Part shown: positions 1 to 58,005 of the stretch, piece after piece
Layout of the letters: every line of letters starts with the position of its first letter
Numbering within the stretch: the stretch's first letter is position 1
Assembly: GCA_009839975.1 (NCBI GenBank)
Contig: VXOP01000167.1
Span: forward strand, 185 to 64,184
Source: Candidatus Poribacteria bacterium
Lineage (GTDB): Bacteria; Poribacteria; WGA-4E; WGA-3G
Reading direction: 5' to 3'
DNA: 64,000 bases
Notes under the pieces: model-generated
Told to the model about the DNA's origin: nothing
The model's database searches: none
What the model saw: the letters and a program-made list of their open reading frames with translations, nothing else
Program-made: the position numbers and the translations under genes

Positions 1-269
1 CCGAAAATTGCATACATTTAAGGGGTTTGAAATTGACGGTAACTTTCCAGAAATTAACAGAATCAATAGGTGGTTGCGCGTAAAACCTCTTTTGTGTCTC
101 ATTCGTCAAGAAAAGGTACGTGATTTAAGACGGATATTACGCTTGCCACCTTTGTTTTCCATTTTCCTGTTAATTGATCGGAGTGGTGAAGAATTGAGTA
201 TCGTGTTTTCAAAAGACGCGCTATTGCTGCGTTCTCAACCTTATATTTGGAGAAAGGTGAAGAATTCTA

Positions 270-3239
270 ATGGTTGAACAACTTGAACTTGATTTTATGG
301 GAATCTCAGACGATTCTCAAGAACCGCAGCGGCTCCATGCACAAATTGCTTTGCTGGAAAACGCTGTTGATCCATCTGATTTTGTGTTAATGGATTACAT
401 TGATAAAGTGATGCCGCAGATGTTTGAAGCGTATACGCTTAAGCCAGCGAAAGGGAGCACTGAATGGGAATACAATCATGACCAGAGTATGCTCGCTCAT
501 ATTCTAAACGGTGTCTTTCCAACGCTTACGATTGTACGAACTGCCGGGATGCAGTTGAGTGAATTAGAAGAAAGCCTATACCTGATTGCTTATTCGTTTC
601 ACGACATTGATAAACTTGTGGGGATCCGTGATTTGAGTGTCTCTGATACCGAAAAGTCTGAGCAATTTTATGCCTATCTTGACGAATGGGTTTCAAAACT
701 CCATTTTGATGAATTCCTTCCAGATTACAAAGTGTACCGCGGAGATATTGCATATCTCATTCTCAACACGCAAAAAAAATGGGGTGCTGATCTGAATTTG
801 AAGCATTTTGATTTACGTTTACAAGGACGAAGACGCCAGTATCTGCGGGAGATGTGCACAGCCTCAGACATGATTGCTTATCTGCTGAAGAATCCGAGCG
901 GATTTAAAGAACAAGCAATTGTCCGCGAATCTCTTACACAATTAAGCGGTGGGAAACTTGAACTTACCTATCACAAACTTGCTGAACATCGCGGGATGAT
1001 TACAAACGTCATTAACAACGCCTTGCTTAGAATTTTGCGTGACCGTCTCGGATGGAAACCCTTTCTCTTTTTTCCAACAGGTGTTACGTATCTGCGAGAA
1101 CGATCAAGCGAGGAAGCGATTTTACCGACGTTTGATGAAGTCGCTGAAGACACAGAAAAGCAGCTGATTGCATACTGTGCTGATCGTCTGAAAGTCAATC
1201 TTAACGGCTTCACGCGCGATGGCAAGGGATTTAAGTTTCCTGACTTCTATTATGATTTTTTTCAGATTCCGCAGTTGTTGAAACTCATCAGTATCGGATG
1301 TTTCAGGATTCTGCACGAAAACAAATCATCTTCCGCTGGAAAACGGCTACAAAAGATACTTCAACTACAAGAAAGGGGTGATATTCCGGGCAATGACACA
1401 CTTGATTTTGAAGATGACATGCGCGTTGATCAACTTGCAGAGTATCTCTATGAAATTGAGAAAAACGTTGGGGTAGTAACGAGTCGTGAGGGGGTATCTG
1501 CTGAAATCGTCAGAGTTTTGAATATGCAAGAATATCAGACCATCTTTGAAGCCATTCCACGCGACAGTAGGGTTGGTGGTGTGCCATTGCATTGGTATTT
1601 CCTTGCTGGTAAATATCTGCTGGAGAACCGTGGATTAGACACCAATCAGATGGAAGACCTGTTTACTTACATTGCTGAGAAGATTGTTACGACATTCAGG
1701 GAAGAGATTGAACAACACGAAATGGAGAAAGAAGGTTTCAGGGTTCTTCGTGAATATGTTCAGCAAATTGTTGATATTAACGGACATGGTCAGATTGAAC
1801 GCGACTTTAAATTGGAGTTAAACAGATACATCAATACGAAAAAGAAAGGGCGCGGATCAAACGCTGGATGCTCACTCTGTTCATCAACCTTTGATACTGC
1901 CAAACAGCGAGACACATCGGTTATATTTGCTAACCAAGTTTATAGCAACAAGAACTTACTCAATTCATCGATGCTTGTTCGTGGAATCTGTGAATTATGT
2001 GAAGTAGAAATGATGCTGCGCCAAATCATGATCCGATCAAAACTGAATCTGGTTGGTAGTAGATACGACGATGTAAAAATTAAGTGGCTTTATCTTTATC
2101 CGAGTTATTTCTTCACAACCGAAACTGCCAAATTTGCAGGTGATATGTACCATCGGTTGAAGAATCTCAATTTTTTTGATGTTCGCAAAGCTCTACACAA
2201 AGGGATGGCAGTAAGGGATTTCATCAACTTAGATGAGATGGTGATTGATACCGATATTCCGGATACAGACGATGATTTTCTGCTCAAAATGGAATTTGAT
2301 ACCAATGATCCTGCTACTTTCTACTTCTGTGGATTCCCTACGCTTGGGAACAGTCCTACAGATACAGAATCGTGGGCAATTCCAACTTTTCTCAGCCTCC
2401 TTATACCTTTAGTATTCAATGCCAAGGTCGTCGTTACAGAGTCGCAGGTCCCTCTTTATCATAGCGGTGAAGAGTGGAAGGAAACAGTTATTCTCAATGC
2501 GCCACCTTCTTTTGTCCATCATATACTGAGACAAGATAAACTCCGTATTGATGAGATTGAACCTGCGCTTCAAAAAGTTGCAGTGATTTATGATATGAAT
2601 GTTGACGTATTCCAAAAAGATGGAAATCCACAATGGAAATATCTTAACCAAATTGCTCGAAATATTGACACAGATCCGTTCTACGTTTTTTATTACCTGG
2701 AAGCATTTCGTCGAAAACAAAGTTGGGATAATTTCCCAAAACAACCTGACGGAGAACCGTCAATACCAGAGCGATATATACAAGCTTACCAATATGTTGG
2801 AGGTGACAAAATGAGTCTTATTGAAGAAGCAGCGAGTCGTTGCTTCAAGTTTTATGATCCTGATAATTTCAAACCTAATAGTGTATTGAAAGTTTTTACC
2901 CTTATTGAAGACGTAATCATCAACAGTGAACCGAAGATTTGTTCAGAAGACCTGAAATATCAGGTTATTGGAGAAATCCGTAATCTGATGCGACGAATTC
3001 GTCGGCCAAGCGGTGCTCGAGGGCGCCGCAGACTTAAGCGCGAAGAAGAGGCATTAGCCATTCACGAATTCGTTGAATATTTTTATCATACCGTCTTTGT
3101 AGCGTATTACGAGGACGAACGTGGTTTGCTGCGTCAAGCAAGAAACCGATTTAACGCTGGTATAAACGCCTGGTACCAGGTTAACTGGCGACAATTCCAA
3201 ACCAAAAAGGCAGAGGAGGATGTTAATGCCGATAATTGA
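270..3239 (+). CDS. cas10d: Cas10d-like CRISPR large subunit with N-terminal HD nuclease domain (type I-D)
   Basis: 989 aa. HD motifs are present near the N-terminus (EYNHDQSM, and SFHDIDK which resembles the Cas3 motif II HDxGK). There is a treble-clef-like Cys pair region (GCSLCSS...CELCEV). No GGDD cyclase motif is present, which argues against type III Cas10. It is followed directly by a Cas7 then a Cas5 gene, matching the I-D order cas10d-csc2-csc1. An RBS (GGAGAAAGG) precedes the ATG at 270. Confidence 0.55.
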   Translation: MVEQLELDFMGISDDSQEPQRLHAQIALLENAVDPSDFVLMDYIDKVMPQMFEAYTLKPAKGSTEWEYNHDQSMLAHILNGVFPTLTIVRTAGMQLSELEESLYLIAYSFHDIDKLVGIRDLSVSDTEKSEQFYAYLDEWVSKLHFDEFLPDYKVYRGDIAYLILNTQKKWGADLNLKHFDLRLQGRRRQYLREMCTASDMIAYLLKNPSGFKEQAIVRESLTQLSGGKLELTYHKLAEHRGMITNVINNALLRILRDRLGWKPFLFFPTGVTYLRERSSEEAILPTFDEVAEDTEKQLIAYCADRLKVNLNGFTRDGKGFKFPDFYYDFFQIPQLLKLISIGCFRILHENKSSSAGKRLQKILQLQERGDIPGNDTLDFEDDMRVDQLAEYLYEIEKNVGVVTSREGVSAEIVRVLNMQEYQTIFEAIPRDSRVGGVPLHWYFLAGKYLLENRGLDTNQMEDLFTYIAEKIVTTFREEIEQHEMEKEGFRVLREYVQQIVDINGHGQIERDFKLELNRYINTKKKGRGSNAGCSLCSSTFDTAKQRDTSVIFANQVYSNKNLLNSSMLVRGICELCEVEMMLRQIMIRSKLNLVGSRYDDVKIKWLYLYPSYFFTTETAKFAGDMYHRLKNLNFFDVRKALHKGMAVRDFINLDEMVIDTDIPDTDDDFLLKMEFDTNDPATFYFCGFPTLGNSPTDTESWAIPTFLSLLIPLVFNAKVVVTESQVPLYHSGEEWKETVILNAPPSFVHHILRQDKLRIDEIEPALQKVAVIYDMNVDVFQKDGNPQWKYLNQIARNIDTDPFYVFYYLEAFRRKQSWDNFPKQPDGEPSIPERYIQAYQYVGGDKMSLIEEAASRCFKFYDPDNFKPNSVLKVFTLIEDVIINSEPKICSEDLKYQVIGEIRNLMRRIRRPSGARGRRRLKREEEALAIHEFVEYFYHTVFVAYYEDERGLLRQARNRFNAGINAWYQVNWRQFQTKKAEEDVNADN

Positions 3240-4233
3240 TTTTCCGAAAGAAATTGTTCCCGAAGGATGTTTTTTAGATCAAATACCGAAAGCACCAACA
3301 GGACGTTATGCCCATCTGATTTTCGTTCGTGAAACGGAGTCGTTTCCTATTTTTCAGACAGATGGTACACTCAACATTACAAAGGTCAGTGCAGGGTTGC
3401 ACAGTGACAATTCGCTTATTCGACTTGCTATGTTCAAACGAAAACAGAGTTCACCGGAACGACTTACGGGACGTGAGTTACTGCGCCGAATGAATATTAC
3501 ACAGAATGAAGATAGCGACGGAGATGACTACTGTGATTACAATGAAAATTTCTGCGGTACCTGTCCCGACTGTGTTTACTACGGTTTCGCTATCGCAGAC
3601 TCAGGCTCCGAAAAATCAAAGGTGTATGTTGATACTGCTTGCTCAATTACAGGGTACGACGAATCACATCAACAGTTTTCATTTAATGCCCTCTATGAAA
3701 AAGGGAACATGAGTCAGTACGGTGACGTTCGCTCAAGTTTTGGTGAACAGGACCACATCGTGCCACAAGTGTTTTTCCCGTCTGTTATTACGATTAAGGA
3801 TGTGACAGTACACAGTTTCACCTATGTCTTGAATAACGTATTGCGAACGAAACGTTACGGCGCACAGACAACGCGAACAGGACGACTTTCTAATCATATT
3901 GTCGGTGTTGTATTTGCTGATGGTGAGATTTTTTCAAATCTTAAATTCACACAAGCTATCCATGATGGATTGGGTGAGGACAAGAATGAAATCCCGTTGA
4001 ATCCTACAAAAGTTCTTCAAACTGCTCAAAATACCTTGTCTGCGCTTTTGGAAGATGATGGTGTGATTTATCACCTACTCAATAGAGAAAATCTAAAACA
4101 ACTACTTGCTATTGTCAAATCTGTGACGAGAGATGAAGAAAAACTCCAGCTTTTCTTGCAGGAGGCAAACACCGAAACACAAGAATACGCCGCGCGAGTC
4201 ATCCAAAAGGCATCAAACAAGAAGCAAAAGTAG
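3226..4233 (+). CDS. csc2: Cas7d/Csc2 Cascade backbone subunit with Zn-finger
   Basis: About 335 aa. The CxxC..CxxC cluster (CDYNENFCGTCPDCVYYGF) is typical of I-D/I-B Cas7. The gene overlaps the cas10d stop, which suggests translational coupling. The start is taken at the second ATG, 6 nt after GAGGAGG. The ORF track uses 3220. Confidence 0.55.
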   Translation: MPIIDFPKEIVPEGCFLDQIPKAPTGRYAHLIFVRETESFPIFQTDGTLNITKVSAGLHSDNSLIRLAMFKRKQSSPERLTGRELLRRMNITQNEDSDGDDYCDYNENFCGTCPDCVYYGFAIADSGSEKSKVYVDTACSITGYDESHQQFSFNALYEKGNMSQYGDVRSSFGEQDHIVPQVFFPSVITIKDVTVHSFTYVLNNVLRTKRYGAQTTRTGRLSNHIVGVVFADGEIFSNLKFTQAIHDGLGEDKNEIPLNPTKVLQTAQNTLSALLEDDGVIYHLLNRENLKQLLAIVKSVTRDEEKLQLFLQEANTETQEYAARVIQKASNKKQK

Positions 4234-4242
4234 GAGGAACCG

Positions 4243-4926
4243 ATGCAAGTTACGAAATGTCATCTTACACTGCACGATTTTCTCTTCTATGCGACGCGTG
4301 AGATGGGACGACTTTACGAGACTGAAAAGGTTATACACAATTGGGCGTTGACTTATGCACTCGGTTTGGTTCAGAAACCGCATAGATCGTTTAACAGCGT
4401 TCCTACCTATCAGGATGACCTAACACCAATCAATGCGGCAGGTGTTTATGTTACACCTGCCAAACCTATCCACTATGATTATGTCATCAGTACATTCAAA
4501 CTGGCAGACAATCGGCATCGTCCGTTCTCAACTGTGAGCAACACACGAAAAAAAGAGTTAGGAATAAAGGTGACGAATAAACCTTCATTCGGTAAAGCAA
4601 AAGAACTTGCCCCAGGTAGTCTTTTTGAGTTTTTCATTGTCGGTGATTTACCCGACAAACTCCCAAAATGGATAAGGTTAGGTATATGGATGAGCAAAGC
4701 AGGGATTGAGATTAAAGATACGAAATTCTTAACACCAAAGAACGGGGCTTTTACGTGTTCACACCTTCTGAACCCAATAGATCTCGCAATTTCATCAGAG
4801 TTCTACGATCTCATTTCAATGCCGCCGGTGAGTTTACTACAGAACGCACGATTTAACGGTGAATATGTTGAATTCGGTAATGTTTGTTTGCCGACATCCA
4901 TGGCATACTTTGCCAGTGTAATATAA
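4243..4926 (+). CDS. csc1: Cas5d/Csc1 Cascade subunit
   Basis: 227 aa RAMP-like protein with a Gly-rich segment (PSFGKAKELAPGS) and a C-terminal RLGIWMSKAGIE strand. AGGAGGA RBS. It sits immediately after csc2. Confidence 0.45.
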   Translation: MQVTKCHLTLHDFLFYATREMGRLYETEKVIHNWALTYALGLVQKPHRSFNSVPTYQDDLTPINAAGVYVTPAKPIHYDYVISTFKLADNRHRPFSTVSNTRKKELGIKVTNKPSFGKAKELAPGSLFEFFIVGDLPDKLPKWIRLGIWMSKAGIEIKDTKFLTPKNGAFTCSHLLNPIDLAISSEFYDLISMPPVSLLQNARFNGEYVEFGNVCLPTSMAYFASVI

Positions 4927-4972
4927 GGAGACGGGTGTGTAAAATTTTTGTAGAAGAATACAGGTAAAACTT

Positions 4973-5038
4973 GTAGGAGCGATCTCCGAATCGCGACCTG
5001 TCGGGAATTGGCCAGATATATGTTAACTGGCCTCCTAC
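4973..5038. repeat. Structured dispersed repeat family A, copy 1 (66 nt)
   Basis: gtaggagcgatctccgaatcgcgacc...tcgggaattggccagatatatgttaactggcctcctac. The 7-bp ends are inverted repeats (gtaggag/ctcctac). It has internal stems gcgat/atcgc and ggccag/ctggcc. It is near-identical to the copy at 53289-53366. Confidence 0.7.
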
Positions 5039-5048
5039 TAAAGATTCT

Positions 5049-5075
5049 GTAGGAGCGATCTCCGAATCGCGACCT
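5049..5075. repeat. Family A partial copy (5' 27 nt only)
   Basis: gtaggagcgatctccgaatcgcgacct is repeated 76 bp after copy 1. Confidence 0.7.
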
Positions 5076-5123
5076 ACTCAAATATGGAAAACATATTGAT
5101 TCAGCGCATTAGTAAAAAAAAAC

Positions 5124-5152
5124 TTGACAAACAGTCGTACATCGTGTATGAT
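5124..5152 (+). promoter_or_regulatory. Consensus sigma70-type promoter (TTGACA-17-TATGAT)
   Basis: TTGACA at 5124-5129, a 17-nt spacer, TATGAT at 5147-5152. It sits in the non-coding region downstream of csc1. A second TATAAT lies at 5206-5211. Confidence 0.5.
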
Positions 5153-5159
5153 ATATATC

Positions 5160-5358
5160 GTGTACAATATAGATATACCAATTAGTAAAAAACTAAAAGG
5201 TATGCTATAATGTTCCCAGGTGAGAGTTACCCAAGCATTGTTAGAGTTTAGGGGGGACAGAGGTTCCAATTCTGTCTTGCTTGTTATCAACCTGCCAATT
5301 TAACAATGAATTACCCTACTACAAATTCGCGGTGTAGTAGGGTAATTCATTTTCTGTG
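5160..5358 (+). ncRNA. Candidate small RNA of about 200 nt, promoter to terminator, with a possible 13-codon micro-ORF
   Basis: A predicted TSS about 7 nt after the -10 box. The transcript ends at a 16-bp perfect hairpin plus U-tract at 5308-5358. It contains ATG TTC CCA GGT GAG ... AGA GTT TAG (13 codons) after an AAAGG. No ORF of 60 aa or more is present. Confidence 0.3.
5308..5358 (+). terminator. Rho-independent terminator
   Basis: gaattaccctactaca-aattcgcgg-tgtagtagggtaattc is a 16-bp perfect stem. It is followed by ATTTTCTGTG. Confidence 0.55.
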
Positions 5359-5658
5359 TCAACGCTTGAGATGGTTTTCACTTTTTAATCATCATTGCTG
5401 TGTTCCAGGATTCCCAATTGGTAATTTTTCAGATTGCTCTTTATAGGCTGTGACTGGATTCGTCTGTCTGAAAATTTACCAATTTTACCAATTACGATTC
5501 TGTTAAAAGACTATACCCGCAAAATTAGGGCGGACACTCTACTATTTGAAGTAACCTTACATTCTGCTAAGGTTATCAACTATGGGAAATAGTTCTATTT
5601 CAGGTATCTTCAGCACCAGCGGTGCTTGGGGTTTGACGGTATGTGTTTTCTACAATTT

Positions 5659-5783
5659 CTGTAAACATATCGTCCTTACCAAATCAACGCCAAATGCGCG
5701 TTTGGCATTTGGTGAGACTAAAGAGAGGGTGTGAACGTTTATCTATAAACATATCGTCCCTATCACTTTTTCTTGACTAAATC
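5659..5783 (+). repeat. Two degenerate copies of the CRISPR-like repeat family B, with hairpin arms disrupted
   Basis: ctgtaaacatatcgtcc[40-nt insert]gactaaagagag at 5659-5727, and ctataaacatatcgtcccta[tcactttttctt]gactaaatc at 5743-5783. These match the 5' and 3' parts of the family B consensus ctataaacatatcgtccctacgggactaaag seen at 58.0-58.2 kb. Confidence 0.55.
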
Positions 5784-5933
5784 TTGTATAGTCTGTTACA
5801 ATTGGGATGAGGTTGGCTATAGAAAACCTACGTCTCTGTTATATATAGAGCCAAATCCATGAATAAGCAGCACTATTAACGAGTATGATAATAACGACCA
5901 AAACAACCGATAACTAAATATCCCTATAATCCA

Positions 5934-7850
5934 ATGGGAATAAGTGTATATTTTATGAGATATGCTATCCTCTTTTTCATTGCGGTGACGTTTCTACCGC
6001 TGCAGAGTTCCGGCCAATACGCGACAACATTGGGATTACCCAAAGGGGCAAAACTACGCATCGGTAAAGGAAGTATACGAGATATAGCCTATTCACCAGA
6101 TGGCACAAAGTTCGCTGTCGCAAGTAGTATTGGTATTTGGTTATATGATACCAAGACTTATCAAGAGATCTCTCTGCTTATAGGGGATATGAGTTCGGGA
6201 AATAATATATTGTTTAGTCCAGATGGACAGGCACTTGCAAGTGGATGGGACGACGCTACCTTACGAATTTGGGATACCAATACGGGTGAGCAACGATATG
6301 CCATCAAAGCATATACAGATGATATGTCATTTAGTCCGGATGGACAAATACTCGCAAGTTGTGGTCATGACCGCAAAATACATTTATGGCAAGTAAAAAC
6401 AGGTAAACACATTCGAACGTTCATTGGACATGCGAGGTCAGTGTGCAGCGTATCATTTAGTCCGGATGGACAAACACTCGCAAGTGGCAGTCATGACAAT
6501 ACAATTCGTCTATGGCAAGTAAAAACGGGTGAACACATTCGAACGTTCACTGGACATGAGAAATCGGTTCGCAGCATATTGTTTAGTGCGGATGGACAGA
6601 CACTCGTAAGTTGCGGTGAGGATGAAACTGTCCGATTTTGGAATACGAAAACCGGACAGCAAATCAGCAACACTAATGTCGGTTATACAGGTTTCTTTTA
6701 TCCTTTAGTTTTCAGTCTGGATGGACAGACGCTTGCAAGTTCTGATAGGAATACTATCGCCTTATGGGATACCAACACGAATGAACGTATCCACAATTTT
6801 CCGGTAGATACGGATCCTACGTTTACAGAGTATACCTCTAATCTACGTAGTGTATCATTTAGTCCTGATGGACAGACAATCGCAGGTGGTTATGCACACG
6901 CTATCCGTTTGTGGAACATAAAGACAAGGAGACACATCCGTACGATTAGAGGGTATACGGATTCTGTCTACAGCGTATCTTTTAGTTCCGATGGGCAGAA
7001 ACTCGCAGTTGGTAGCCATGGCCTACCTATCCGTTTGTGGAACACAAAAACAGGTGAATACATTTGCACGATTAAGGGGAGTTCACGACACGTATCATTT
7101 ACGCCTGATGGGCAAACGCTGGCAGGTGTTATTTATATGCATCTCCATTTATGGGAAACAACCAGAGGAGAACTCCTCCGATCATTTACGGGGAATACAG
7201 CCATTTACAGTTTTGGTTGTTTTGCATTCAGTCCAAATGGACAGACAATTGCGAATGGGAGCTCAGAGACGATCCATTTGCGGAACGCAACCACAGGGGA
7301 ACACATTCGCTCGCTCACAGGACATACGGATTCAGTGCGTAGCATTGCGTTTAGTCCGGATGGAAACTTACTTGCAAGTGGTGGGCAAAATACGATCCCA
7401 AGAGTAGCAGATGACGAATTAGGTGAAACAACTGTTCACTTATGGGATCCACATACTGGTGAACACCTACATTTACTCACAGCTCAGAAGTCAGATGTAA
7501 TTTTTGACTTATCGTTTAGTCCGGATGGACAGACCCTTGCCAGCTCAGACATTGCGGTCCGATTATGGAATACGAAGACAGCCGAACTGCTCCACACACT
7601 CACCGGGCATACAGGCTGGGTAAAAAGTATATCGTTCCATCCTACGAATGGACAACTCCTCGCCAGCGGGAGTGGTGACTCAACGATACGTTTATGGCAT
7701 GTAAATACAGGCACACACCTAAAGACGCTTACTGGACATACGAGAGGTATCGAAAGCATTTCATTTAGTCCGGATGGACAAGTACTTGCAACAGCAAGTC
7801 TTGATGGCACAGTGCTATTGTGGGATATAGCATCTTTAGATAAACCCTAA
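5934..7850 (+). CDS. WD40-repeat protein with N-terminal signal peptide
   Basis: A dozen or more repeats of the FSPDGQTLASG...IRLW type. Hydrophobic N-terminus. The start is uncertain between 5934 and 5955. Confidence 0.8.
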   Translation: MGISVYFMRYAILFFIAVTFLPLQSSGQYATTLGLPKGAKLRIGKGSIRDIAYSPDGTKFAVASSIGIWLYDTKTYQEISLLIGDMSSGNNILFSPDGQALASGWDDATLRIWDTNTGEQRYAIKAYTDDMSFSPDGQILASCGHDRKIHLWQVKTGKHIRTFIGHARSVCSVSFSPDGQTLASGSHDNTIRLWQVKTGEHIRTFTGHEKSVRSILFSADGQTLVSCGEDETVRFWNTKTGQQISNTNVGYTGFFYPLVFSLDGQTLASSDRNTIALWDTNTNERIHNFPVDTDPTFTEYTSNLRSVSFSPDGQTIAGGYAHAIRLWNIKTRRHIRTIRGYTDSVYSVSFSSDGQKLAVGSHGLPIRLWNTKTGEYICTIKGSSRHVSFTPDGQTLAGVIYMHLHLWETTRGELLRSFTGNTAIYSFGCFAFSPNGQTIANGSSETIHLRNATTGEHIRSLTGHTDSVRSIAFSPDGNLLASGGQNTIPRVADDELGETTVHLWDPHTGEHLHLLTAQKSDVIFDLSFSPDGQTLASSDIAVRLWNTKTAELLHTLTGHTGWVKSISFHPTNGQLLASGSGDSTIRLWHVNTGTHLKTLTGHTRGIESISFSPDGQVLATASLDGTVLLWDIASLDKP

Positions 7851-40315: not shown

Positions 40316-43300
40316 ATGTATAGACAACAAAACATCTTTATCTTTCTGTATATACTCTGTCTCTTAGTCTTTTTATTGTGTGACAACCCTATCATCTTTG
40401 CACAGGATATATCTAACGATGAACAGATAATAGAACGTTATAAACTGATGCTTAAACGTAAGCCAAAAGAGGGGAGTACATTTGACCGGCTCTATCAGTT
40501 TTATCTGGAAGGTGCTGGTTTAGATGCAATGGTTTCAGATTATCAAGCAGAAGCAGAAGCCAATCCGAATGAACCAAACCTGCAACTTATCTTAGGACAT
40601 ATCTACAAACGGCTTGGAAGAGATACAGAAGCCGTCAATACATACAAACGTGCTGTTGCACTTGCACCAGACAATTACTATACGCATTTTGCACTCGGAC
40701 AAGCGTTTGCTGCATTACTACAGCATGAAAATGCCATCAATTCTTTGAAACAGTCAGCAACTTTTGCTGAGAAGACGCAAGATGCTACTCCCGAAGAAAT
40801 GACTGCCATCTATAAAGCACTCGGCAAAAGTTACTTCAGGCGAGATAGGGTTGATGAAGCAATTACTGCATGGATAAAGATCGCTGAAATTGATCCACAA
40901 AACATCTTTGCACGGACTGAACTTGCCGATCTATTCATAGAGCAGGAACTATACGAGCAAGCAATCACACAGCATCAAGCGATAATACAACTCAAAACGG
41001 ATGATCCTTACCGAAAGTGTTTAAGTCAAAGAGAAATTGGCAATATCTATGAAATAAAAGGTGATTATCAGAAAGCCATTCAAAGTTATGATACAGCACT
41101 CTCCTTAACAGTACCCGGCAACTGGTTGCGGAAAGACCTTCAACATCGTATCATCGGTATATTCGCCACTGATAGTGATTGGAAAGGCTTGATTAAATAC
41201 TACCAACAGAAACTCGAAACAACGCCAAATGAACCGGAACTACTCGGCTTGTTAGCTGCAGCGTATATTGAAAACCAGCAAACTGAAGAAGGGATAAACG
41301 TATATCGGAAAGGTTTAGAACTTGCACCAACAGATTCGACGCTCCGCCTAAATCTTATCGCTGCACTCCGCAACGATGAAAAGTTCGCTGAAGCTGCAAC
41401 TGAATATGAAGTACTGAGTGAACAAGATCCAGACGATTTTGGAATCTATCGTGAACTCGGTGAGTTGTATATACAAGTGGATGATGAAGACAGCGCAAGG
41501 AAAACGTATCAACAGATGATTGATCGTGATCCGAACAGTGCCAGTACATATCTGACACTTGCAGAAATCTACACAGGCAATGAATGGCTTGAAGATGCAA
41601 TCGCAGCATATCAGAAAGCGATATCCCTTGCCCCGAATAATCTTGACTACATTGCGTATTTTGGGGAATTCTATCTGCGTCAAGGAAGTCGTGACAAAGC
41701 AATAGAAACTTGGAATATGATGGTTGCCTCTAACTTAGGGATTGCCGAAAATTATGAAAGACTTGCAAAACTACTTAGCACAAAGAACTTTCATACCGAA
41801 GCAATAACCGTAAGTCGAAAAGCTGTAGAATTGAAACCCGATGTCTACGAATACCGTAAGGAGTTGGCACAACGACTTATGAAAACTGGGGAATTCGAGG
41901 AAGCACAGAAAACGTTTACCGAAGCAGCAAAACTTGCACCGAACGCATTCTTTGCTGAGGAGATGGACAACCAACGTATTGAACTCTATCGTAGACAAGG
42001 AACGCTTTTGGAAAAAATCGAAGCAGTGGAGGTAGCACTTGAAGAATCTGGACTGACAGATACAGAGATATTCACACAACAGAAACGACTCGCAAAGATG
42101 TATCTTAAGTTGGGTAATGTCACTTATGCATTGGAAGTCCTTTTGAAAGCAAAGGCGGACAAACCTGATGATGTAATTGTCAATCGATGGCTTGCGGAGG
42201 TATATATCAAGCAAAACAGACGCGATGATGCGAATGCTATCTACATGCATCTTATACAAATCGACAGTGCCAATGCACGCGAATACTATACGAATATTGC
42301 GCAATCTCATTTGCATGTGATGGATTTTGAAGCTGCCACTGCATCAGCAAAGCAGGTCATCGCGCACAGTCCACGCAATCCAGAAGGACATAAGATGCTT
42401 GCTGAAATTGCAAAACAGTCCTCCAATTATGATGGTGCTATAGATAGCCTCAAACAGGCAATTCGTCTACGTCCAGATGCAATTGATATGCGTTCTGAGT
42501 TGGCAGCGGTTTATAAGCTTGCAGAAAAACCGAGGCAAGCACTTGCACAGTATTGGCGATGCTGGGAATTAAGCGATTCTGTTAGTGACAAACTCTCTTT
42601 CGTCAAACCACTTTCCGATACATATTACGACTTAGGACAGGGTAGTGCTTTGTCGGAAAAACTAAAACAGTTATCAAAATCAAATGCATCTGGTGTTGCC
42701 CCTGTTTTGGCACTTGCTGAACTCCACCGTATGGAAGGGGATCTCCCAAAGGCAAGATTTCAACTTGCACGTGCATTAGATAGGCAAAGCGATAATCCGG
42801 ACCTGTTGTCACAACTTGTGAACATTAGCCTTGACCTTGGTGATAACCAAGACGCCTTAACCTATCAAGAACGTCTCGTTAAAGCACATCCAGACCCAAT
42901 CCACCAGCGAAAACTGGGTGAGTTGTTATTTGATGCTGGACGCGAGCAGGAGGCTATTCAGGCATGGACAAAACTGCTTCATGCGAAAAACCAGACACTT
43001 GAAGCGGAGGTAAAACTCGCTATTTTACTGATTCGGCATGCACATCTTGACGAAGCACTCTTTGTCCTTGATCGCGCAGCTGAGAAAATTACTGGTACAG
43101 ATGCACATATAGCACTCTTCCAACTCGGTGTGGTATTAGTGAAAATGAACGAGTATGAACGCGCACGGACGCATTTCCAACGTATCTTAGAGATGCCAAA
43201 ACCACAGGAAACCGCAGATAAGAAACGAGATACATACAGACGTTATAACTATGATCCACCCGGTATAAATACCAGAAAATTTGATCTTGCAGACGACCTT

Positions 43301-46300
43301 CTTTACGATATTCAGGATCAATCATACAGAGGCAGCAATGTTCAAGGATGGATGCCGAAAAACTTTGACGAAGCACAAGCAGGCGCACTTGTACATTTAG
43401 TGACAATATCACAACAAGAAGGCAAACTAAATGAATTCATACAACAGTATGAAACCAACCTGAATAAAAACCCAAAGGACATCAAGACGCTTGAAACCTT
43501 AGCGCAAATCTATACCTTGACAGAAAACACAAAGAAGACAGATGAAATTATTGAGCAATTGATCGCTGCATCTCCTAAAGATACCACCTACCAAGCCATA
43601 AGATTAAGAAATGCGATTCAAAGAGACTATACTTCTGAAACATTAGAGCAATATCTAAATAACACCACAGATTTAACTGAAGCATCACGTCTTTGGTTCA
43701 CATTTCAATACATCCAAAAACGCTACCTTGAAGGGGAAGAGGCTGAAGCAGAGAAACTGATAAATGAAATTGAAGATACAAATGGCATGAACCTTGACAC
43801 TATTGATGCCCTTATAGAGACACTTGTTCTCATGAAGAAAACTGACGCTGCGGAACGATTCATTGCAAAGTTACCTATTCCTACGCAAACACAACAGTCA
43901 ACGTATAGATACATTTATAGTAAGGTTACCCATGCCTACCTAAAGCTTGGGCAGTATGACAAGGCTGTAAATCTCTTCTGGACTTACCTTGAGAAGACTC
44001 GTCCTGAAATGATTAACACACAACGAGTTCCATCATTACCTTTAAGCACATCTTCTTCAAGTAGTTCATCCATTCAAACAATATTTCCTACAAGCACAGC
44101 CTATTACAAGGGAAGTCGATTGTGGTATCTAAAATCCTTTTCACGCGAATTGTGGATGAATAATCAACAGATGGTACTGTACGAAAAATTACAGACTGTT
44201 TTTGATGCGACGGATGGAAGAGATAGAATCTTCCCTGGATTAGCACTTAGCTACTGTTACTGGTGGAATGGACGGCGCGAAAAAGCACAAGAAATACTCG
44301 TTTCACTTCAAAACGAATTCCCACATGACCAATCCCTCAAACTCAATACAGTGTTCTTAGCAATTCAATCAGGACAACAGGCTGGAACAATTAAATTACT
44401 TGAGGAACTTACAATCAGTGATCCGAGAAATAGATCTAAATACTACGAACTGACGTTAAAACTGGCAATGCAGACGGGTAACAGTGTCGCAATACGTGAT
44501 CTGATAGTAAAACTCCTGAATACACCAAGCAGTGCTCATGAACTTTACAACTATTCCATGCAACTAAAGAAAGCCGGTTATTCACAATACGCTTCTGCAA
44601 TTATGAATAAAACAGTGAAACTTGCTATGGGGGTGCAAGATGCAAGTTTTTTGATGGATATAAGTCGTCATTTGGAAAATCTCGGTAGAGGACAGGATGC
44701 CGCGATGATCGCAGAAAGGGCACTACGATTTGCAAACCGACGCGACCGATACGGTAGAACACTATCTTCTTGGAAACTTCAACAAGCCACACACCTGACG
44801 AGCCATTCAGAATCCATTAAAGATCATGAAATACAATTAATTGAAGCTGCAAGAAAGAACCCTAATTCACATAAGGCACAGATAAAGTTGGCAGCCTTCT
44901 ATGAAGGAACAGAACGGATTGAAAAGGCGACAGACGCATTCAAGACTGCACTCACTTTACGACCTAAAGACAGTGATACTCGCAAACGTTACGCAGCTTT
45001 GTTATACCGAAGTGGAAAATATGAGGATGCTATTCCGCAATATACGAAACTGCTCCAAGACAACCCAAGTATACTTGGGTACGATACGTGGGATGTAATT
45101 GAAACCTTTTTTAGGGCAAAGAGAGTTGACGAACTCGTCTCTCTCTCCAAAGATATGATAACACCATCCATTGGACGGGATTATAATAACGAATTAGCAC
45201 GAGATGTAGCAAGTGAACTTAGGGATACAAACAATCATAAAGCAGCTATAGAAATATATGAAAAACTGATTGAAGCACAGCCGAGTGACTCATACTATAT
45301 TCGATACATGGCTGGTGCATACACCGAAATGGGTGAATATGAGAAAGCAATCCAGATACTAAGGGATTTACTGAAAATCGAGGATTCACTGTATTGGCAA
45401 AAAACGACCATCTCATTATTGACACGTTATTATAGATTTTCCGGTGGACTGGAGGAATTCATCACGGAATATGAAGCAAAACTGGCAGAAAAACCGGCTG
45501 ATAACAACTTACGCTATCTTGTTGCTACAATGAAATTTGAAGCGAATGACTTGGATGGGGCAGACGAACTCACTTTACAACTTCTTGATGAGGACACGTT
45601 CAATACTCTAAATAGAGGTGACCTCACAAGTTTGGCGGATGCTTATCGACTTGCAGGGTTGCGAGAACGTGAATTGCAGATTCTGGAATACATTGTGAAA
45701 AACCAACAAGGGTATTGGACGACATATAATAGACTCGGCATGATATATGGACTAAGGGGTGAAACGGAGAAAGCACAAGATGCATATCGTAAAATGGGTA
45801 GACTCAAGTTGCAATATAGGAACGATTACATTGACCTAATGAATCTGGGTTCGATTTATATGCAGAATCTCATGTGGGATGATGCTGAACCGCTTTTTAT
45901 TCAAATCGTCAACGACCTGTCTGTTCAATCATATTATCGTAGCCAAGCAGCAGATCAGTTGGTAGGAATAAAAAGACGTCGCACTGATTTCAATAATTCA
46001 ACCCAACTGAATGATAAGATACAATCCATGGACATCGGCACGTTGCGAACTTTAGCAAAAGATTTCGCACGGCGCGGAGATAGAAAAAAAGCAATAACCT
46101 TATACACACATCTCCAAAAGATCATGCCAGAAGACTTCGAATCTCGGGCACACCTTGCATCAATATATACGACCCAAAATCAATACGACAATGCTGTTGC
46201 GACATGGGAATCACTCCTTGCTGAAGACCCGGGAAACTCAAAGTTTCAAGATGGACTTGTCCGGACCTATCAGAAAGCAGGTAATATTAACAAAGCAATT

Positions 46301-49300
46301 GAAATAGCGCAACACTACATTGACCGTGATTCTGACAACAGTGTCAATTACATCCGTATTGCAAAACTCTATGCCGATGCGGATCGGACCGATGATGCTA
46401 TCACTGCATACAAAAAAGCAGTTGAAATTAACCCTGGCAATGCCGAACTCTACCAAGAAATGGCTACACTCTATCTGCGTAAAGAGGATGTAGATGCTGC
46501 TAAACAGGCTTACCAAGAAGCAATACGGTACACGGGATCAGAATGGGAACGACAGGATATTGAGCAAGAGATAATAAAACTAACTGAAAGTAAAGAAAAC
46601 AGTGAAGACGCTGAACAGAAGATGGAAGAGGATAAGGTGCTTACTTATGCACAGCAAAAGGCACGCGCGGATAAGTTAAGAGAAGATGGAAAACTCACTG
46701 AGGCAAGTACTACTTATGAAAAAGCTCTTGAAATGACTACCGATAGTTTTGAACAGAGAAGAATCTATGAATATCTGATCGATATTTATCCAAAAGTTGG
46801 GAATGATGATGCTGCCATTGAAATGCACGACATGCTTGCATTCTCAATGGGAATATACAATGCTGAACAAAGAGCACGCGATAGGTTAATCAATGCTTAT
46901 GATAGTGCAAGCAAACTTGATATCCTGACAACTATCTATAAGACAAAACTTGAGAACGATCCCAAAAATATAAAGAATATGGAAATGCTTGCAGAAACTT
47001 ACAAAAAAGCGAACGACCATGCAAAGACAGCTGAGATGTATCAAGCAATCATCAAGTTACAACCGAATAACATCATAAGTTATTACTGGATTGCTGCTGC
47101 ATATAATAGAGATGGACAATCCGATTTAGCTAAGCAGATGTTAAGTCAAGGTGAAAGTGTTCTTTCTGTTAGTGATAGAAAAAGCGATAGGTATTTCCTT
47201 AAAGAGCTCGGGGATATCTGCTATGACGGTAGATTGTACGACTCGGCAATTAAACTGGCTTATACTGCAATCGCTGAAAGTATAGGGACGAGACTCCACG
47301 GCGTTGGTTCTCCTGCTGAATCTGCCTATGAACTTCTGGCAAAGAGTTACCTCGCTGCAAAACGATATGAGGAAGCAGTATATGCTTATCAGCAACTCGT
47401 AAATCTCCCAGGAAGTGGTTGGCGTAGAGACGAAGCAAGGAGAGCCATTGAAAGCGCATCAAAGTTGGGTAAACTTTACGATAAACAGATACCGAAACTG
47501 CTGAAACAGGTTCAGGAAAATCCTGATGACGCAGAAGTTCGTTTGACACTTGCACAAACCTACGAAAAAGCAGATAAACCTGATGAATCAATTACACATT
47601 ACGAAAAGTTGAGTCAACTCCAACCTAATGATGTCAGATGGCAAAAAAAACTGGGTGATCTCTATAAAAAGGAGAGGTTACAGCGAAGCCTAACTGGACA
47701 AGTATATGAAAACATTGCAGTGCAGCTTGACGGCAACGCAAATTATGTAGAGGTAGAGAACAGTGACTCATTGAGAAGAATCACACGACAGGCGACAATT
47801 TCCTTCTGGATGAAACCCACTGCATTTCCAAATAGATATGCACCGATAATATCTAAAGGAGATGAACGACAAGCAGATTTGAGCAACCGAAGCTACACCC
47901 TTCATCTTGAAGAGCAGGGAAAAATACATTTCTCCTCTGCTCCCAGGGGGCGTGGACAGAGGCAAATCTATACAGATGTTGGTACTATTCAATTAAACCA
48001 ATGGTATCACATTACTGGCGTTATTGATGCGACACGAAACAGTATCAAACTCTATGTCAACGGGATTGAATTAGGTAACAATACCTTGAGTGGACAACAG
48101 AGTTTCTATGAAAGTCATTTACCGCTACGCATTGGATGGACACATGAGATAGAAAGACCTACACATTCACCTTTCGTTGGACTTATTGATGATGTGCGAA
48201 TCTGGAATATCGCACGTCGCGGAAATCAGATCCGTTCTGATATGAATACAGAATTGAAGGGAGATGAACAAGGATTAGTCGCGTATTGGAAATTCAATGG
48301 TGCTACAGATGGCATGGTACTTGACGCTACACCCAATAAAAACCATGGTAGAATATTCGGAAATGCCAAATTTACCTCTTATTCACGTCCTATTTTCGAG
48401 AGTGCAAAAAGTGCACAACTTACAAAAGCATCTGCTGCTTATGAAAAAGCAGTTAAGCTTGACCCTACTTCTTATGAACTATACACCTTATTGGCAGAAA
48501 CTTATGACAGAAGTGGTCAATCATCAAAAGCAGAGGAGGTATATCTCCGAGCTCTGGATGCTCCACTTACAGAACGCAACCACGATGACGCGATTCAAGC
48601 CATCTGGTCATTTTACGAAAATAGGAAGGATCAAGACAAGGGAATTGCAATCCTTGAAGGACTTAAGCAGCGACAGAAAAATAGTGTAGTTCTATATCAA
48701 CTGTTAGGAGATGTATACCGAAGTGTCGGAGATACTGACAAATCTGATCACGCTTATACGCAGTGGATTGAACTCCGACGGCGACAGTTAAACCAGCAAG
48801 GTTCCGGTTATCAAGATTTTGCCGAAGAACTGATAAAAAAAGAGATGTTTCCAGCAGAGGCAATAGAATTTGCAAAACGTGCTGTCCAACACAATAGTAA
48901 TTATACGAATATACTAACATTAGGATATGCTTATCTTGCAGATGGACAAAATGATATAGCACTTGAAGAATTCAAAAAAGGGTTAAAGATCTTGAAATCC
49001 GGGTCTTTTCAACGCAAATTCTTCTCATGGATTTTTGATTACGGTGAAAAAATAGAAGACAAAGAGACTTACGTTGACATGTTAAACGAACTCGTAAACG
49101 TTATACCTGATAACTTAATCGTTCAACTTAATCTTAGTCTGCTGCTTGCGGATTTCTGCCTAAAAAATGACATGCAAGATAAAGCAAGAGCGTACATTCA
49201 AAAAACCGGTTTCATTACTGAAGATGCATGGCTATACCTCGGTCCTTTTGACAATACCAGCGGAATAGGTCACGATACTGCATATATTCAAGAAGACATC

Positions 49301-49729
49301 ACACAAATAGACATGAACAAAAAGTATGATGCGGATAATAAGAAGATCAGTTGGAACAATCTGCCAGATGACAAGTTGGATGGTTTTATTAATATGGGAG
49401 AAGGGCGCGACTGGGAGGTTGCTTATGCTTTCACAACTATCGTTTCACCTGATGCGCGTGAAGTCCAATTCCGATTCGATAGTGATGATCAGGGAAAAAT
49501 CTGGCTTAATGGTGAAAGGGTATACGCAAGACGCACTTCACATCCGACAGAAATTGATCGGTATGTTTTTCCTGTGACTCTCAAGCAAGGCACAAACAGT
49601 CTACTCATCAAAGTATGTGAAGAGTCAGGTGGTTGGGGATTTTACCTGCGTATCACAGATGAACACGGTAAACCTTATCAGGACCTACAATTCCGACGTC
49701 CAGATACGGGATCGGTGGTGCAACAATAA
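40316..49729 (+). CDS. Giant secreted TPR-repeat protein (3137 aa) with C-terminal concanavalin-A-like (LamG) and beta-sandwich carbohydrate-binding-like domains
   Basis: N-terminal signal. Dozens of TPR units (A..Y..A..L.P). Around residues 2480-2680 there is a LamG-like pattern (ISFWMKP...WYHITGV...LYVNG). The final roughly 170 aa is a jelly-roll-like domain (GKIWLNGERVY...GGWGFYLRI). Confidence 0.75.
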   Translation: MYRQQNIFIFLYILCLLVFLLCDNPIIFAQDISNDEQIIERYKLMLKRKPKEGSTFDRLYQFYLEGAGLDAMVSDYQAEAEANPNEPNLQLILGHIYKRLGRDTEAVNTYKRAVALAPDNYYTHFALGQAFAALLQHENAINSLKQSATFAEKTQDATPEEMTAIYKALGKSYFRRDRVDEAITAWIKIAEIDPQNIFARTELADLFIEQELYEQAITQHQAIIQLKTDDPYRKCLSQREIGNIYEIKGDYQKAIQSYDTALSLTVPGNWLRKDLQHRIIGIFATDSDWKGLIKYYQQKLETTPNEPELLGLLAAAYIENQQTEEGINVYRKGLELAPTDSTLRLNLIAALRNDEKFAEAATEYEVLSEQDPDDFGIYRELGELYIQVDDEDSARKTYQQMIDRDPNSASTYLTLAEIYTGNEWLEDAIAAYQKAISLAPNNLDYIAYFGEFYLRQGSRDKAIETWNMMVASNLGIAENYERLAKLLSTKNFHTEAITVSRKAVELKPDVYEYRKELAQRLMKTGEFEEAQKTFTEAAKLAPNAFFAEEMDNQRIELYRRQGTLLEKIEAVEVALEESGLTDTEIFTQQKRLAKMYLKLGNVTYALEVLLKAKADKPDDVIVNRWLAEVYIKQNRRDDANAIYMHLIQIDSANAREYYTNIAQSHLHVMDFEAATASAKQVIAHSPRNPEGHKMLAEIAKQSSNYDGAIDSLKQAIRLRPDAIDMRSELAAVYKLAEKPRQALAQYWRCWELSDSVSDKLSFVKPLSDTYYDLGQGSALSEKLKQLSKSNASGVAPVLALAELHRMEGDLPKARFQLARALDRQSDNPDLLSQLVNISLDLGDNQDALTYQERLVKAHPDPIHQRKLGELLFDAGREQEAIQAWTKLLHAKNQTLEAEVKLAILLIRHAHLDEALFVLDRAAEKITGTDAHIALFQLGVVLVKMNEYERARTHFQRILEMPKPQETADKKRDTYRRYNYDPPGINTRKFDLADDLLYDIQDQSYRGSNVQGWMPKNFDEAQAGALVHLVTISQQEGKLNEFIQQYETNLNKNPKDIKTLETLAQIYTLTENTKKTDEIIEQLIAASPKDTTYQAIRLRNAIQRDYTSETLEQYLNNTTDLTEASRLWFTFQYIQKRYLEGEEAEAEKLINEIEDTNGMNLDTIDALIETLVLMKKTDAAERFIAKLPIPTQTQQSTYRYIYSKVTHAYLKLGQYDKAVNLFWTYLEKTRPEMINTQRVPSLPLSTSSSSSSSIQTIFPTSTAYYKGSRLWYLKSFSRELWMNNQQMVLYEKLQTVFDATDGRDRIFPGLALSYCYWWNGRREKAQEILVSLQNEFPHDQSLKLNTVFLAIQSGQQAGTIKLLEELTISDPRNRSKYYELTLKLAMQTGNSVAIRDLIVKLLNTPSSAHELYNYSMQLKKAGYSQYASAIMNKTVKLAMGVQDASFLMDISRHLENLGRGQDAAMIAERALRFANRRDRYGRTLSSWKLQQATHLTSHSESIKDHEIQLIEAARKNPNSHKAQIKLAAFYEGTERIEKATDAFKTALTLRPKDSDTRKRYAALLYRSGKYEDAIPQYTKLLQDNPSILGYDTWDVIETFFRAKRVDELVSLSKDMITPSIGRDYNNELARDVASELRDTNNHKAAIEIYEKLIEAQPSDSYYIRYMAGAYTEMGEYEKAIQILRDLLKIEDSLYWQKTTISLLTRYYRFSGGLEEFITEYEAKLAEKPADNNLRYLVATMKFEANDLDGADELTLQLLDEDTFNTLNRGDLTSLADAYRLAGLRERELQILEYIVKNQQGYWTTYNRLGMIYGLRGETEKAQDAYRKMGRLKLQYRNDYIDLMNLGSIYMQNLMWDDAEPLFIQIVNDLSVQSYYRSQAADQLVGIKRRRTDFNNSTQLNDKIQSMDIGTLRTLAKDFARRGDRKKAITLYTHLQKIMPEDFESRAHLASIYTTQNQYDNAVATWESLLAEDPGNSKFQDGLVRTYQKAGNINKAIEIAQHYIDRDSDNSVNYIRIAKLYADADRTDDAITAYKKAVEINPGNAELYQEMATLYLRKEDVDAAKQAYQEAIRYTGSEWERQDIEQEIIKLTESKENSEDAEQKMEEDKVLTYAQQKARADKLREDGKLTEASTTYEKALEMTTDSFEQRRIYEYLIDIYPKVGNDDAAIEMHDMLAFSMGIYNAEQRARDRLINAYDSASKLDILTTIYKTKLENDPKNIKNMEMLAETYKKANDHAKTAEMYQAIIKLQPNNIISYYWIAAAYNRDGQSDLAKQMLSQGESVLSVSDRKSDRYFLKELGDICYDGRLYDSAIKLAYTAIAESIGTRLHGVGSPAESAYELLAKSYLAAKRYEEAVYAYQQLVNLPGSGWRRDEARRAIESASKLGKLYDKQIPKLLKQVQENPDDAEVRLTLAQTYEKADKPDESITHYEKLSQLQPNDVRWQKKLGDLYKKERLQRSLTGQVYENIAVQLDGNANYVEVENSDSLRRITRQATISFWMKPTAFPNRYAPIISKGDERQADLSNRSYTLHLEEQGKIHFSSAPRGRGQRQIYTDVGTIQLNQWYHITGVIDATRNSIKLYVNGIELGNNTLSGQQSFYESHLPLRIGWTHEIERPTHSPFVGLIDDVRIWNIARRGNQIRSDMNTELKGDEQGLVAYWKFNGATDGMVLDATPNKNHGRIFGNAKFTSYSRPIFESAKSAQLTKASAAYEKAVKLDPTSYELYTLLAETYDRSGQSSKAEEVYLRALDAPLTERNHDDAIQAIWSFYENRKDQDKGIAILEGLKQRQKNSVVLYQLLGDVYRSVGDTDKSDHAYTQWIELRRRQLNQQGSGYQDFAEELIKKEMFPAEAIEFAKRAVQHNSNYTNILTLGYAYLADGQNDIALEEFKKGLKILKSGSFQRKFFSWIFDYGEKIEDKETYVDMLNELVNVIPDNLIVQLNLSLLLADFCLKNDMQDKARAYIQKTGFITEDAWLYLGPFDNTSGIGHDTAYIQEDITQIDMNKKYDADNKKISWNNLPDDKLDGFINMGEGRDWEVAYAFTTIVSPDAREVQFRFDSDDQGKIWLNGERVYARRTSHPTEIDRYVFPVTLKQGTNSLLIKVCEESGGWGFYLRITDEHGKPYQDLQFRRPDTGSVVQQ

Positions 49730-53288: not shown

Positions 53289-53366
53289 GAAGTCTCTGTA
53301 GGAGCGATCTCCGAATCGCGACTTAACGTAGTGATAGTCGGGAATCGGCCAGAATTATGTTAACTG
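53289..53366. repeat. Structured dispersed repeat family A, copy 2 (78 nt)
   Basis: gtaggagcgatctccgaatcgcgact-[13-nt insert]-tcgggaatcggccagaattatgttaactggcctcctac. It has the same ends and stems as the copy at 4973-5038. Confidence 0.7.
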
Positions 53367-53426
53367 GCCTCCTACATCTCAAAATGTCCCATTAATTCCA
53401 AAGTTAACTATAATTGTATAATGTCT

Positions 53427-57906: not shown

Positions 57907-58005
57907 AAAATCCTTTCTGGTGCAAGCGTTTTGTTCCTTAAGGGTGTGTAAATATTTTGTCACCCTAATTGTCAATTTAAGAAGATAAATCCAATCAATT
58001 AGTGT

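Follow-up and report, generated by a model that had tools for sequence, protein, structure and literature searches.

A strong promoter-like sequence beside an orphan type I-D CRISPR effector in Poribacteria is a leftover of a deleted cas2 gene

We analysed a 64,000-nucleotide stretch of a Candidatus Poribacteria contig (VXOP01000167.1; hereafter the window), in which a near-consensus sigma70 promoter sequence (P1) follows the last gene of a type I-D CRISPR effector operon. Comparison with related loci indicates that P1 is the leftover of a deleted cas2 gene, of which the last 68 bases survive, and most likely an inherited CRISPR leader promoter. Our preferred reading, which we hold to be probable, is that P1 is what the decay of a CRISPR–Cas locus left behind and that, if it is still active, the RNA made from it would be a by-product ending at a repeat-derived palindrome. 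Below, we set out the comparisons behind this reading and weigh it against explanations in which P1 never fires, drives a functional RNA or peptide, serves the next gene downstream or forms part of a toxin–antitoxin RNA pair.

The type I-D effector set fills positions 1–4926 of the window, and the next gene on the same strand encodes a WD40 protein:

Start of the window (within 1–4926): cas3′ (end of the gene)
270–3239: cas10d
3220–4233: csc2 (cas7d)
4243–4926, + strand: csc1 (cas5d), last intact gene of the truncated operon (NCBIfam TIGR03159, 3.9e-55)
5934–7850, + strand: WD40 gene, same strand as P1

Csc1 proteins identical to this one occur on sponge-metagenome contigs and in metagenome-assembled genomes (MAGs) labelled Candidatus Poribacteria. 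In all eight relatives with a Csc1 73–90% identical, cas6 begins 10–12 nt past csc1, and in six of the eight the locus continues past cas6 with a cas4–cas1 fusion, cas2, a leader (~190 nt) and a CRISPR array, the repeat of which is 37 nt long (CTTGAAA..ATCTCGATT[A/C]CGAGATTGAAAC). Across the 64-kb window, neither cas6, cas4, cas1 or cas2 genes nor a CRISPR array were found, and the Cas6 proteins of three relatives had no tblastn match anywhere in it, so that the Cascade is an orphan within these 64 kb, as the original prediction had described it. The only other copy found with the same truncated junction is L007 (Csc1 94% identical), the contig of which stops at the window equivalent of 5069. 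An apparent split of cas3′ in another locus (L001) proved to be a scaffold gap of Ns rather than a mutation. Used as an orthologue query for the ancestral context, the downstream WD40 protein gave a best match of 48% identity and was swamped by repeat-protein paralogues.

Of the 12 sigma70 consensus bases, P1 has 11 (TTGACA at 5124–5129, 17 nt, TATGAT at 5147–5152), in agreement with the near-perfect match first claimed for it. Sites with at least 11 of 12 matches number seven in the window, compared with 1.6 expected under a first-order Markov model (~4-fold), and several of the seven, the one at 27647 among them, sit upstream of genes, so the organism appears to use sigma70-type promoters; the site at 27647 does carry hexamers identical to those of P1, as had been pointed out. 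The sequence in and around P1 can be laid out as follows:

5086–5153, + strand: cas2 3′-end relic, approximately the last 22 codons, by homology to relatives' cas2 tails; stop codon TAA changed to TAT
5124–5152, + strand: P1, TTGACA-17-TATGAT, positional homologue of the relatives' cas2-stop motif
5138–5169, + strand: cas2 end duplicated in tandem, 16-nt unit (ATCGTGTA + 8 nt), marking the end of homology with relatives

The relatives' Cas2 proteins, searched against the window with tblastn, match at 5099–5146, which translates as IQRISKKKLDKQSYIV, compared with a Cas2 C terminus of IERIGQDKGLDKQSYIV-stop in relatives; for the Cas2 of L012, 12 of 17 amino acids are identical over residues 74–90, ending in the conserved C terminus LDKQSYIV. 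At the nucleotide level, local alignment of the surviving piece (5086–5153) with the cas2 tails of L008, L011 and L012 gave 72–76% identity over 63–69 nt, with scores of 34–47 compared with a maximum of 25–27 for shuffled sequences, an independent blastn search matched 5114–5152 (E = 6e-5), and a multiple alignment with six relatives showed the correspondence base by base. Codons for Leu-Asp-Lys in Cas2 (cTT-GAC-Aaa) supply the −35 hexamer, Lys codons make up the A-tract upstream of it, and the −10 hexamer lies on the former cas2 stop (GTG TAA AAT in relatives versus GTG TAT GAT in the window). The unit duplicated at the breakpoint takes in the final 8 nt of cas2 and another 8 nt.

The same promoter-like motif is found at the cas2 stop codon, the only position scored, in all eight relatives, at the same alignment position; four of these motifs score 11/12, two 10/12 and two 9/12:

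L134, L011, L012: −35 TTGACA, 17-nt spacer, −10 TAAAAT, 11/12
L136: −35 TTGACA, 17-nt spacer, −10 TAGAAT, 11/12
L009, L010: −35 TTGACC, 17-nt spacer, −10 TAAAAT, 10/12
L008: −35 TTGATA, 17-nt spacer, −10 TAGGAT, 9/12
L135: −35 TTGACA, 17-nt spacer, −10 TAACAA, 9/12

Among the seven relatives on which the distance to the first repeat rests (all except L135), the motif precedes that repeat by 183–196 nt in six and by 422 nt in L136. In L009 and L010, cas4, cas1 and cas2 are mostly deleted, yet the cas2 tail still precedes the leader and array. Among the relatives, down to the most distant ones, the leader shows good conservation (TTCTGTGAGCGAAAG.GGACCGAAAAACC...). In Synechocystis, a 212-bp I-D leader follows cas2 directly, and CRISPR arrays have their promoter within the leader (PMC6607411). 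The presence of the motif in all eight relatives, at a leader-like distance before the first repeat, suggests that the ancestral CRISPR leader of the clade most likely had this motif as its pre-crRNA promoter; TTGACA is also constrained by the Cas2 codons, so conservation alone is no proof of promoter function.

Past ~5153, local alignment to the relatives' leaders revealed no homology, and the relatives' leader motifs and repeats are absent from the whole 64-kb window even with 8–11 mismatches allowed, which makes P1 a relic rather than a working leader. P1 is thus like a CRISPR leader promoter (including that of Synechocystis I-D; PMC6607411) in its position relative to cas2, its orientation and the conservation of its motif in eight related I-D loci, ~185–195 nt before the first repeat. 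It differs in lying partly inside cas2 coding sequence and in that the window holds no leader motifs or any repeat, leaving nothing CRISPR-like to transcribe.

Since the −35 hexamer is wholly coding, the TTGACA-17-TAxxAT arrangement could be a coincidence of Cas2 C-terminal codons and stop, with nothing transcribed from it either in the relatives or here. The conserved LDK/LDR residues can explain the conservation, two relatives reach only 9/12, and promoter-like strings arise easily in a region of 35–36% GC. However, the −10 hexamer lies mostly outside the coding sequence and still reads TAAAAT or TAGAAT in six of the eight relatives, with the 17-nt spacing fixed; independent deletions retain the cas2 tail ahead of the array; and the excess of good sites in the window (again ~4 times expectation) also speaks against chance. 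We therefore regard a pure coincidence as unlikely.

If P1 is an active promoter, a discrete short transcript from it, as first proposed, is plausible. As had also been stated, no + strand open reading frame (ORF) of at least 60 amino acids follows P1. Downstream of the cas2 relic, the following features were recognized:

5203–5211, + strand: TGCTATAAT, possible second promoter P2 (extended −10), not above chance alone
5210–5251, + strand: putative micro-ORF MFPGESYPSIVRV, 13 codons, ATG 5210 to TAG 5251, ordinary codon usage
5254–5278, + strand: 9-bp hairpin in the putative RNA, from folding, with a 21- or 22-nt core (5257–5278)
5305–5351, + strand: perfect 19-bp hairpin (5305–5323 / 5333–5351) with a 9-nt loop, predicted terminator; arms resemble dispersed family B
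5352–5361, + strand: T-rich tract TTTCTGTGTC, 6 T in 10, directly 3′ of the hairpin

The second TATAAT, placed at 5206 in the original prediction, is indeed there (5206–5211) and, being preceded by TGC, forms an extended −10; the nine-base pattern TGNTATAAT occurs five times in the window versus 2.7 expected, which is not above chance, and an RNA driven by P2 would begin near 5218, already past the ATG of the micro-ORF. The 13-codon micro-ORF is likewise real as a reading frame, with the AAAGG reported ahead of it at 5196–5200, 9 nt upstream of the ATG; an SD-like motif is found in only 10 of the 23 genes of the window, so that AAAGG is weak evidence for translation. All 13 codons have usages of 7.8–28 per 1,000, and none is repeated in tandem. 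On the opposite strand, a 70-amino-acid ORF (5078–5290), with a TTG start and no spaced SD, runs antisense to the cas2 relic.

The predicted RNA spanning 5159–5360 (202 nt) folds at −64.8 kcal/mol (z = −5.7 versus shuffles). A comparison with Rfam, which had been proposed as a check, gave no family match at gathering thresholds across the window, and within 4900–5950 only sub-threshold, microRNA-type chance matches; no tRNA or tmRNA was found in the window by ARAGORN. A tRNA-like element or tRNA attachment site at 5254–5278 was considered and rejected, both ARAGORN and Rfam being empty there. Exact matches to the hairpin core at 5257–5278 numbered zero in the genome, metagenome and viral collections, and the stretch 5154–5300 matched neither 0.93 Mb of Poribacteria DNA (blastn and nhmmer) nor phages and plasmids. 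From the −35 hexamer through the hairpin tail, no difference separates six contigs from the population of this species, and all of their differences lie outside it (a SNP at 5112, upstream of the −35, a 2-nt deletion at 5455–5456 and SNPs at 5792 and 5815); the known copies of 5154–5360 are near-identical only and too alike to judge conservation or covariation.

The original prediction ended this transcript at a perfect 16-bp hairpin followed by a U-tract; the perfect hairpin and T-rich tract were recovered, but the stem measures 19 bp, with a 9-nt loop. The base of the stem is A/T-rich, and the T-tract follows the hairpin on the + strand only (none on the minus strand), consistent with a hairpin that may terminate + strand transcription. 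A consensus terminator scan with a loop limit of 8 did not report it, probably because the 9-nt loop exceeds that limit. The hairpin at 5305–5351 has no exact match in the metagenome collection. Its arms, however, resemble a dispersed repeat, family B (motif AATGAATTRCSCKACTACA; unit ..AATGAATTGC[C/G]C[T/G]ACTACAAAC..), of which a 0.93-Mb Poribacteria sample holds 14 related copies at three or fewer mismatches, including copies in L102 that are 18/19 and 17/19 identical to the hairpin arm and 11 further members, at 16–17/19, in other genomes of the sample. From this resemblance, the putative terminator is probably an inverted pair of partial family B units.

Other dispersed repeats lie on either side of P1, together with a separate promoter-like site:

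4972–5040, + strand: family A full copy (TGTAGGAG...CTCCTAC), at the deletion junction; second full copy at 53295–53376
5048–5075, + strand: family A half copy (5′ part), dispersed repeat
5658–5681 and 5742–5765, + strand: family D partial copies (unit CTATAAACATATCGTCCCTACGGGACTAAAG)
5679–5712, + strand: family C copy, dispersed repeat
5773–5802, + strand: TTGACT-18-TACAAT with TG, distinct promoter-like site ahead of the WD40 gene

With their 76-nt period, the 28-mers at 4972 and 5048 have the look of a one-spacer mini-array. A mini-CRISPR array at 4972–5075 was nevertheless ruled out: the copy at 53295–53376 carries the would-be 'spacer' along (39 nt at 92% identity), the 22-mer core of this partly palindromic dispersed element occurs in more than 118 genome-contig stretches, nearly all from Poribacteria (with a few 'uncultured bacterium' MAGs), and the element is unlike the cognate repeat. 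Similarly, the crRNA-like degenerate repeats that had been reported at 5659–5783 turned out to be copies of dispersed Poribacteria repeats and not CRISPR-like, the segment 5658–5765 being made of families C and D; four more family D units lie in mixed orientation at 58005–58178, and the 0.93-Mb sample holds 31 copies of family D and 12 of family C. The segment 5658–5802 was first read as transposase-binding sites of a Tn7-like CRISPR-associated transposon end, prompted by TGT...ACA-like ends and by two contigs that end near 5799, and this reading was dropped because cas3′ is present, the related loci are of the ordinary I-D kind and dispersed families account for the repeats. Families A–D are like REP/BIME-type palindromes in being short, partly palindromic, intergenic and multicopy, in both orientations and sometimes clustered, and the 5305–5351 hairpin, like REP elements, could terminate or stabilize an RNA; they differ in that their sequences are Poribacteria-specific and in that this hairpin probably consists of two partial units in inverted orientation, not of one standard unit. 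In repeat-rich genomes such as those of Poribacteria, dispersed palindromic repeats can thus imitate two-repeat mini-arrays, a caution for screens that seek CreTA- or CreR-like elements from 'mini-arrays' and promoters near cas operons.

From these comparisons, we infer a history in which the ancestor would have carried a complete type I-D locus (cas3′, cas10d, csc2, csc1, cas6, cas4/cas1, cas2, leader and array). A deletion in this lineage would have removed cas6, cas4/cas1 and most of cas2, where a family A repeat now lies at the junction, and a separate event would have led to the loss or replacement of the leader and array. Orphaned in this way, P1 probably still fires, reading ~150 nt of unrelated, unconserved sequence until transcription would be stopped by the palindrome built from a dispersed repeat, and the resulting RNA, of 140–200 nt, would most likely be a by-product without a function of its own. 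Decayed CRISPR–Cas loci that retain a piece of cas2 and in which the leader promoter is orphaned are a known kind. In some E. coli strains, only fragments of the I-E cas genes are left beside the array. The window is like such decayed loci in its internal deletion leaving a short cas2 fragment, and in L009 and L010 a different deletion has partly removed the adaptation genes; it differs in keeping its effector genes intact and under selection while lacking cas6, adaptation genes and array, the reverse of the usual picture.

Some observations run counter to the by-product view: P1 still has 11 of 12 consensus positions although the stop codon has mutated, it is followed by a second, extended −10 and by a highly stable fold (z = −5.7), and a strong promoter kept beside selected effector genes could have gained a role. 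P1 might accordingly have been retained to drive a lineage-specific RNA of 140–200 nt, or a 13-amino-acid peptide, with a function. The succession of a near-consensus promoter, extended −10, structured RNA and strand-specific hairpin with T-tract is consistent with this, as are the AAAGG 9 nt ahead of an ATG, the purifying selection on the effector genes and the invariance of the region, from the −35 hexamer through the hairpin, across six population contigs. However, those contigs are too similar for invariance to inform, no homologue appeared in any collection searched (genome, metagenome, viral, Rfam, phages, plasmids and 0.93 Mb of Poribacteria), ancestry accounts for P1, TGNTATAAT is no more frequent than chance would give, the arms of the hairpin look like a dispersed repeat and AAAGG is weak evidence where fewer than half of the genes (10/23) carry an SD-like motif. 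Such an exaptation is a minority reading that we would not expect to hold, and the fallback of the original prediction, a plain sRNA, keeps a small chance in the form of a taken-over promoter. It is very unlikely that the exapted RNA or peptide would serve the array-less, cas6-less I-D effector itself, for example as a non-canonical guide or regulator; if true, this would explain why cas3′, cas10d, csc2 and csc1 were kept after the loss of cas6, adaptation genes and array.

Alternatively, P1 could be a far-upstream promoter of the WD40 gene (5934–7850), with a long 5′ leader in which the hairpin would act as a stabilizing or attenuating palindrome of the repeat type. The gene lies on the same strand with no intervening gene, and dispersed palindromes are common in the intergenic RNA of other bacteria. 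Against this, ~580 nt of repeat-filled sequence separates the hairpin from the WD40 start codon, another promoter-like site, with TG, stands ahead of the gene at 5773–5802, and the hairpin has a terminator-like T-rich tail, all of which make a WD40 leader quite improbable.

The CRISPR-regulated toxin–antitoxin RNA pairs known as CreTA (PMC8501985, PMC9458426), the layout of which the original prediction saw here, comprise a toxin RNA (CreT) and an antitoxin RNA (CreA), the latter being matured by Cas6 and acting with Cascade (PMC8501985). In an addiction module of this kind, the short RNA would act as the CreT-type toxin, and Cascade, guided by a CreA-like RNA from the neighbouring repeats, would repress it. 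We took the defining features from the same source (PMC8501985): one or two degenerate copies of the cognate repeat flanking a spacer-like segment, maturation by Cas6, a PAM-adjacent seed (nt 1–5 and 7–11) complementary to the creT promoter, and a strong SD with a mini-ORF in which consecutive rare codons sequester tRNA. The locus is like CreTA in that a small unit, with a promoter but no protein gene, sits beside cascade genes that are retained without an array next door, and in combining a strong promoter with a short ORF and an SD-like motif. It differs on all four of the features tested, which the sequence contradicts. No repeat-like sequence akin to the cognate I-D repeat is present, three such repeats compared with 4927–5933 giving best local scores of 10–13 versus a median of 10–11 and a 95% level of 13–14 for shuffles, and the candidate 'repeats' are genome-wide dispersed elements, one of them copied with its 'spacer'. 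The window holds no cas6, although CreA maturation needs Cas6 (PMC8501985). No match of at least 10 nt to the promoter was found, and a seed scan (positions 1–5 and 7–11) from all plausible spacer starts returned 10 one-mismatch matches, approximately the chance number, none of them on a P1 or P2 hexamer beside a GTN PAM. Finally, the 13-codon micro-ORF has no consecutive rare codons. A CreTA-like module is, on these grounds, scarcely credible.

Returning to P1 as debris of a decayed locus, the direct value of the result is small, as remains of cas2 and the CRISPR leader account for what appeared to be a strong stand-alone RNA gene; it does reveal that the presumed array promoter of this clade overlaps the last codons and stop codon of cas2. 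Ratios of dN/dS between the window and L007 are 0.14 for cas10d, 0.26 for csc2 and 0.27 for csc1, indicating purifying selection, so the locus is not simply dead, and because L007 shares the truncated junction, the effector has been under selection since the loss of cas6. A type I-D effector thus persists under purifying selection without neighbouring cas6, adaptation genes or array, and its crRNAs and Cas6 may come from genes at other sites of the genome, the whole of which deserves a look. Within the population, two of the six contigs nevertheless carry a csc2 nonsense variant (G4183T, which turns codon 322 of 337 from GAA into TAA).

Purifying selection acts on the orphan type I-D effector genes, which gave dN/dS values of 0.14, 0.26 and 0.27 when window positions 270-4926 were compared with positions 2490-7146 of L007, a relative with a 94%-identical Csc1 and the same truncated junction. 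Neither the I-D locus nor the entire 64 kb window contains cas6, cas4/cas1, cas2 or an array. The effector genes also vary within the population: a G to T polymorphism at window position 4183 converts csc2 codon 322 of 337 from GAA to TAA in two of the six metagenome contigs (L004 and L005), removing the final 16 residues. Among relatives that have cas6 after csc1, three carried a deletion or an insertion in the I-D locus:

L009 9550-10180 and L010 7136-7710: separate internal deletion in related strains
L135 7691-8278: gene with a 23S_rRNA_IVP (four-helix-bundle) domain

The deletion in L009 and L010 differs from that in the window: most of cas4/cas1/cas2 is gone, and a stub of ~35 nt from the cas2 3' end remains, together with cas6, leader and array; loss of the adaptation module is therefore recurrent in the clade. 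In the I-D locus of L135 (one relative), the 23S_rRNA_IVP-domain gene is inserted between cas6 and cas4/cas1.

Downstream of the effector genes and elsewhere in the window, we identified several repeats and one very long open reading frame (ORF):

4972-5040, 5048-5075 and 53295-53376 (and, in genome contigs, loci L013-L130): copies of the family A repeat
5409-5500: nested inverted repeats (5416-5433 / 5467-5484, 94%; 5409-5424 / 5485-5500, 81%)
5504-5516 / 5786-5798: inverted repeat with 13-nt arms separated by 269 nt
5658-5681 and 5742-5765: partial copies of the family D unit
6327-6611: tandem repeat within the WD40 gene (126-nt unit, 2.3 copies, 83% identical)
40316-49729, + strand: ORF of 3137 aa
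58005-58178: four copies of the family D unit, two per orientation

Family A, with core GGAGCGATCTCCGAATCGCGAC and flanks TGTAGGAG...CTCCTAC, is a dispersed repeat specific to Poribacteria; it was found in more than 118 stretches from the genomes of many species, in places as clusters of two to four copies near one another, and can mimic a two-repeat CRISPR mini-array. The family D unit (~31 nt, CTATAAACATATCGTCCCTACGGGACTAAAG, including a small hairpin) likewise resembles a CRISPR repeat, but its spacing is irregular and its orientation mixed. Its 58005-58178 cluster lies in the gap separating two minus-strand genes, and 31 additional copies were present in the Poribacteria sample (0.93 Mb of DNA).

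The nested inverted repeats build a long imperfect palindrome with only weak matches elsewhere. Contigs L004 and L005, from independent assemblies, both end at window position ~5799; this shared break adjoins the 13-nt inverted repeat and could mark a repeat or a strain-variable junction. The tandem repeat corresponds to WD40 blades of recent duplication.
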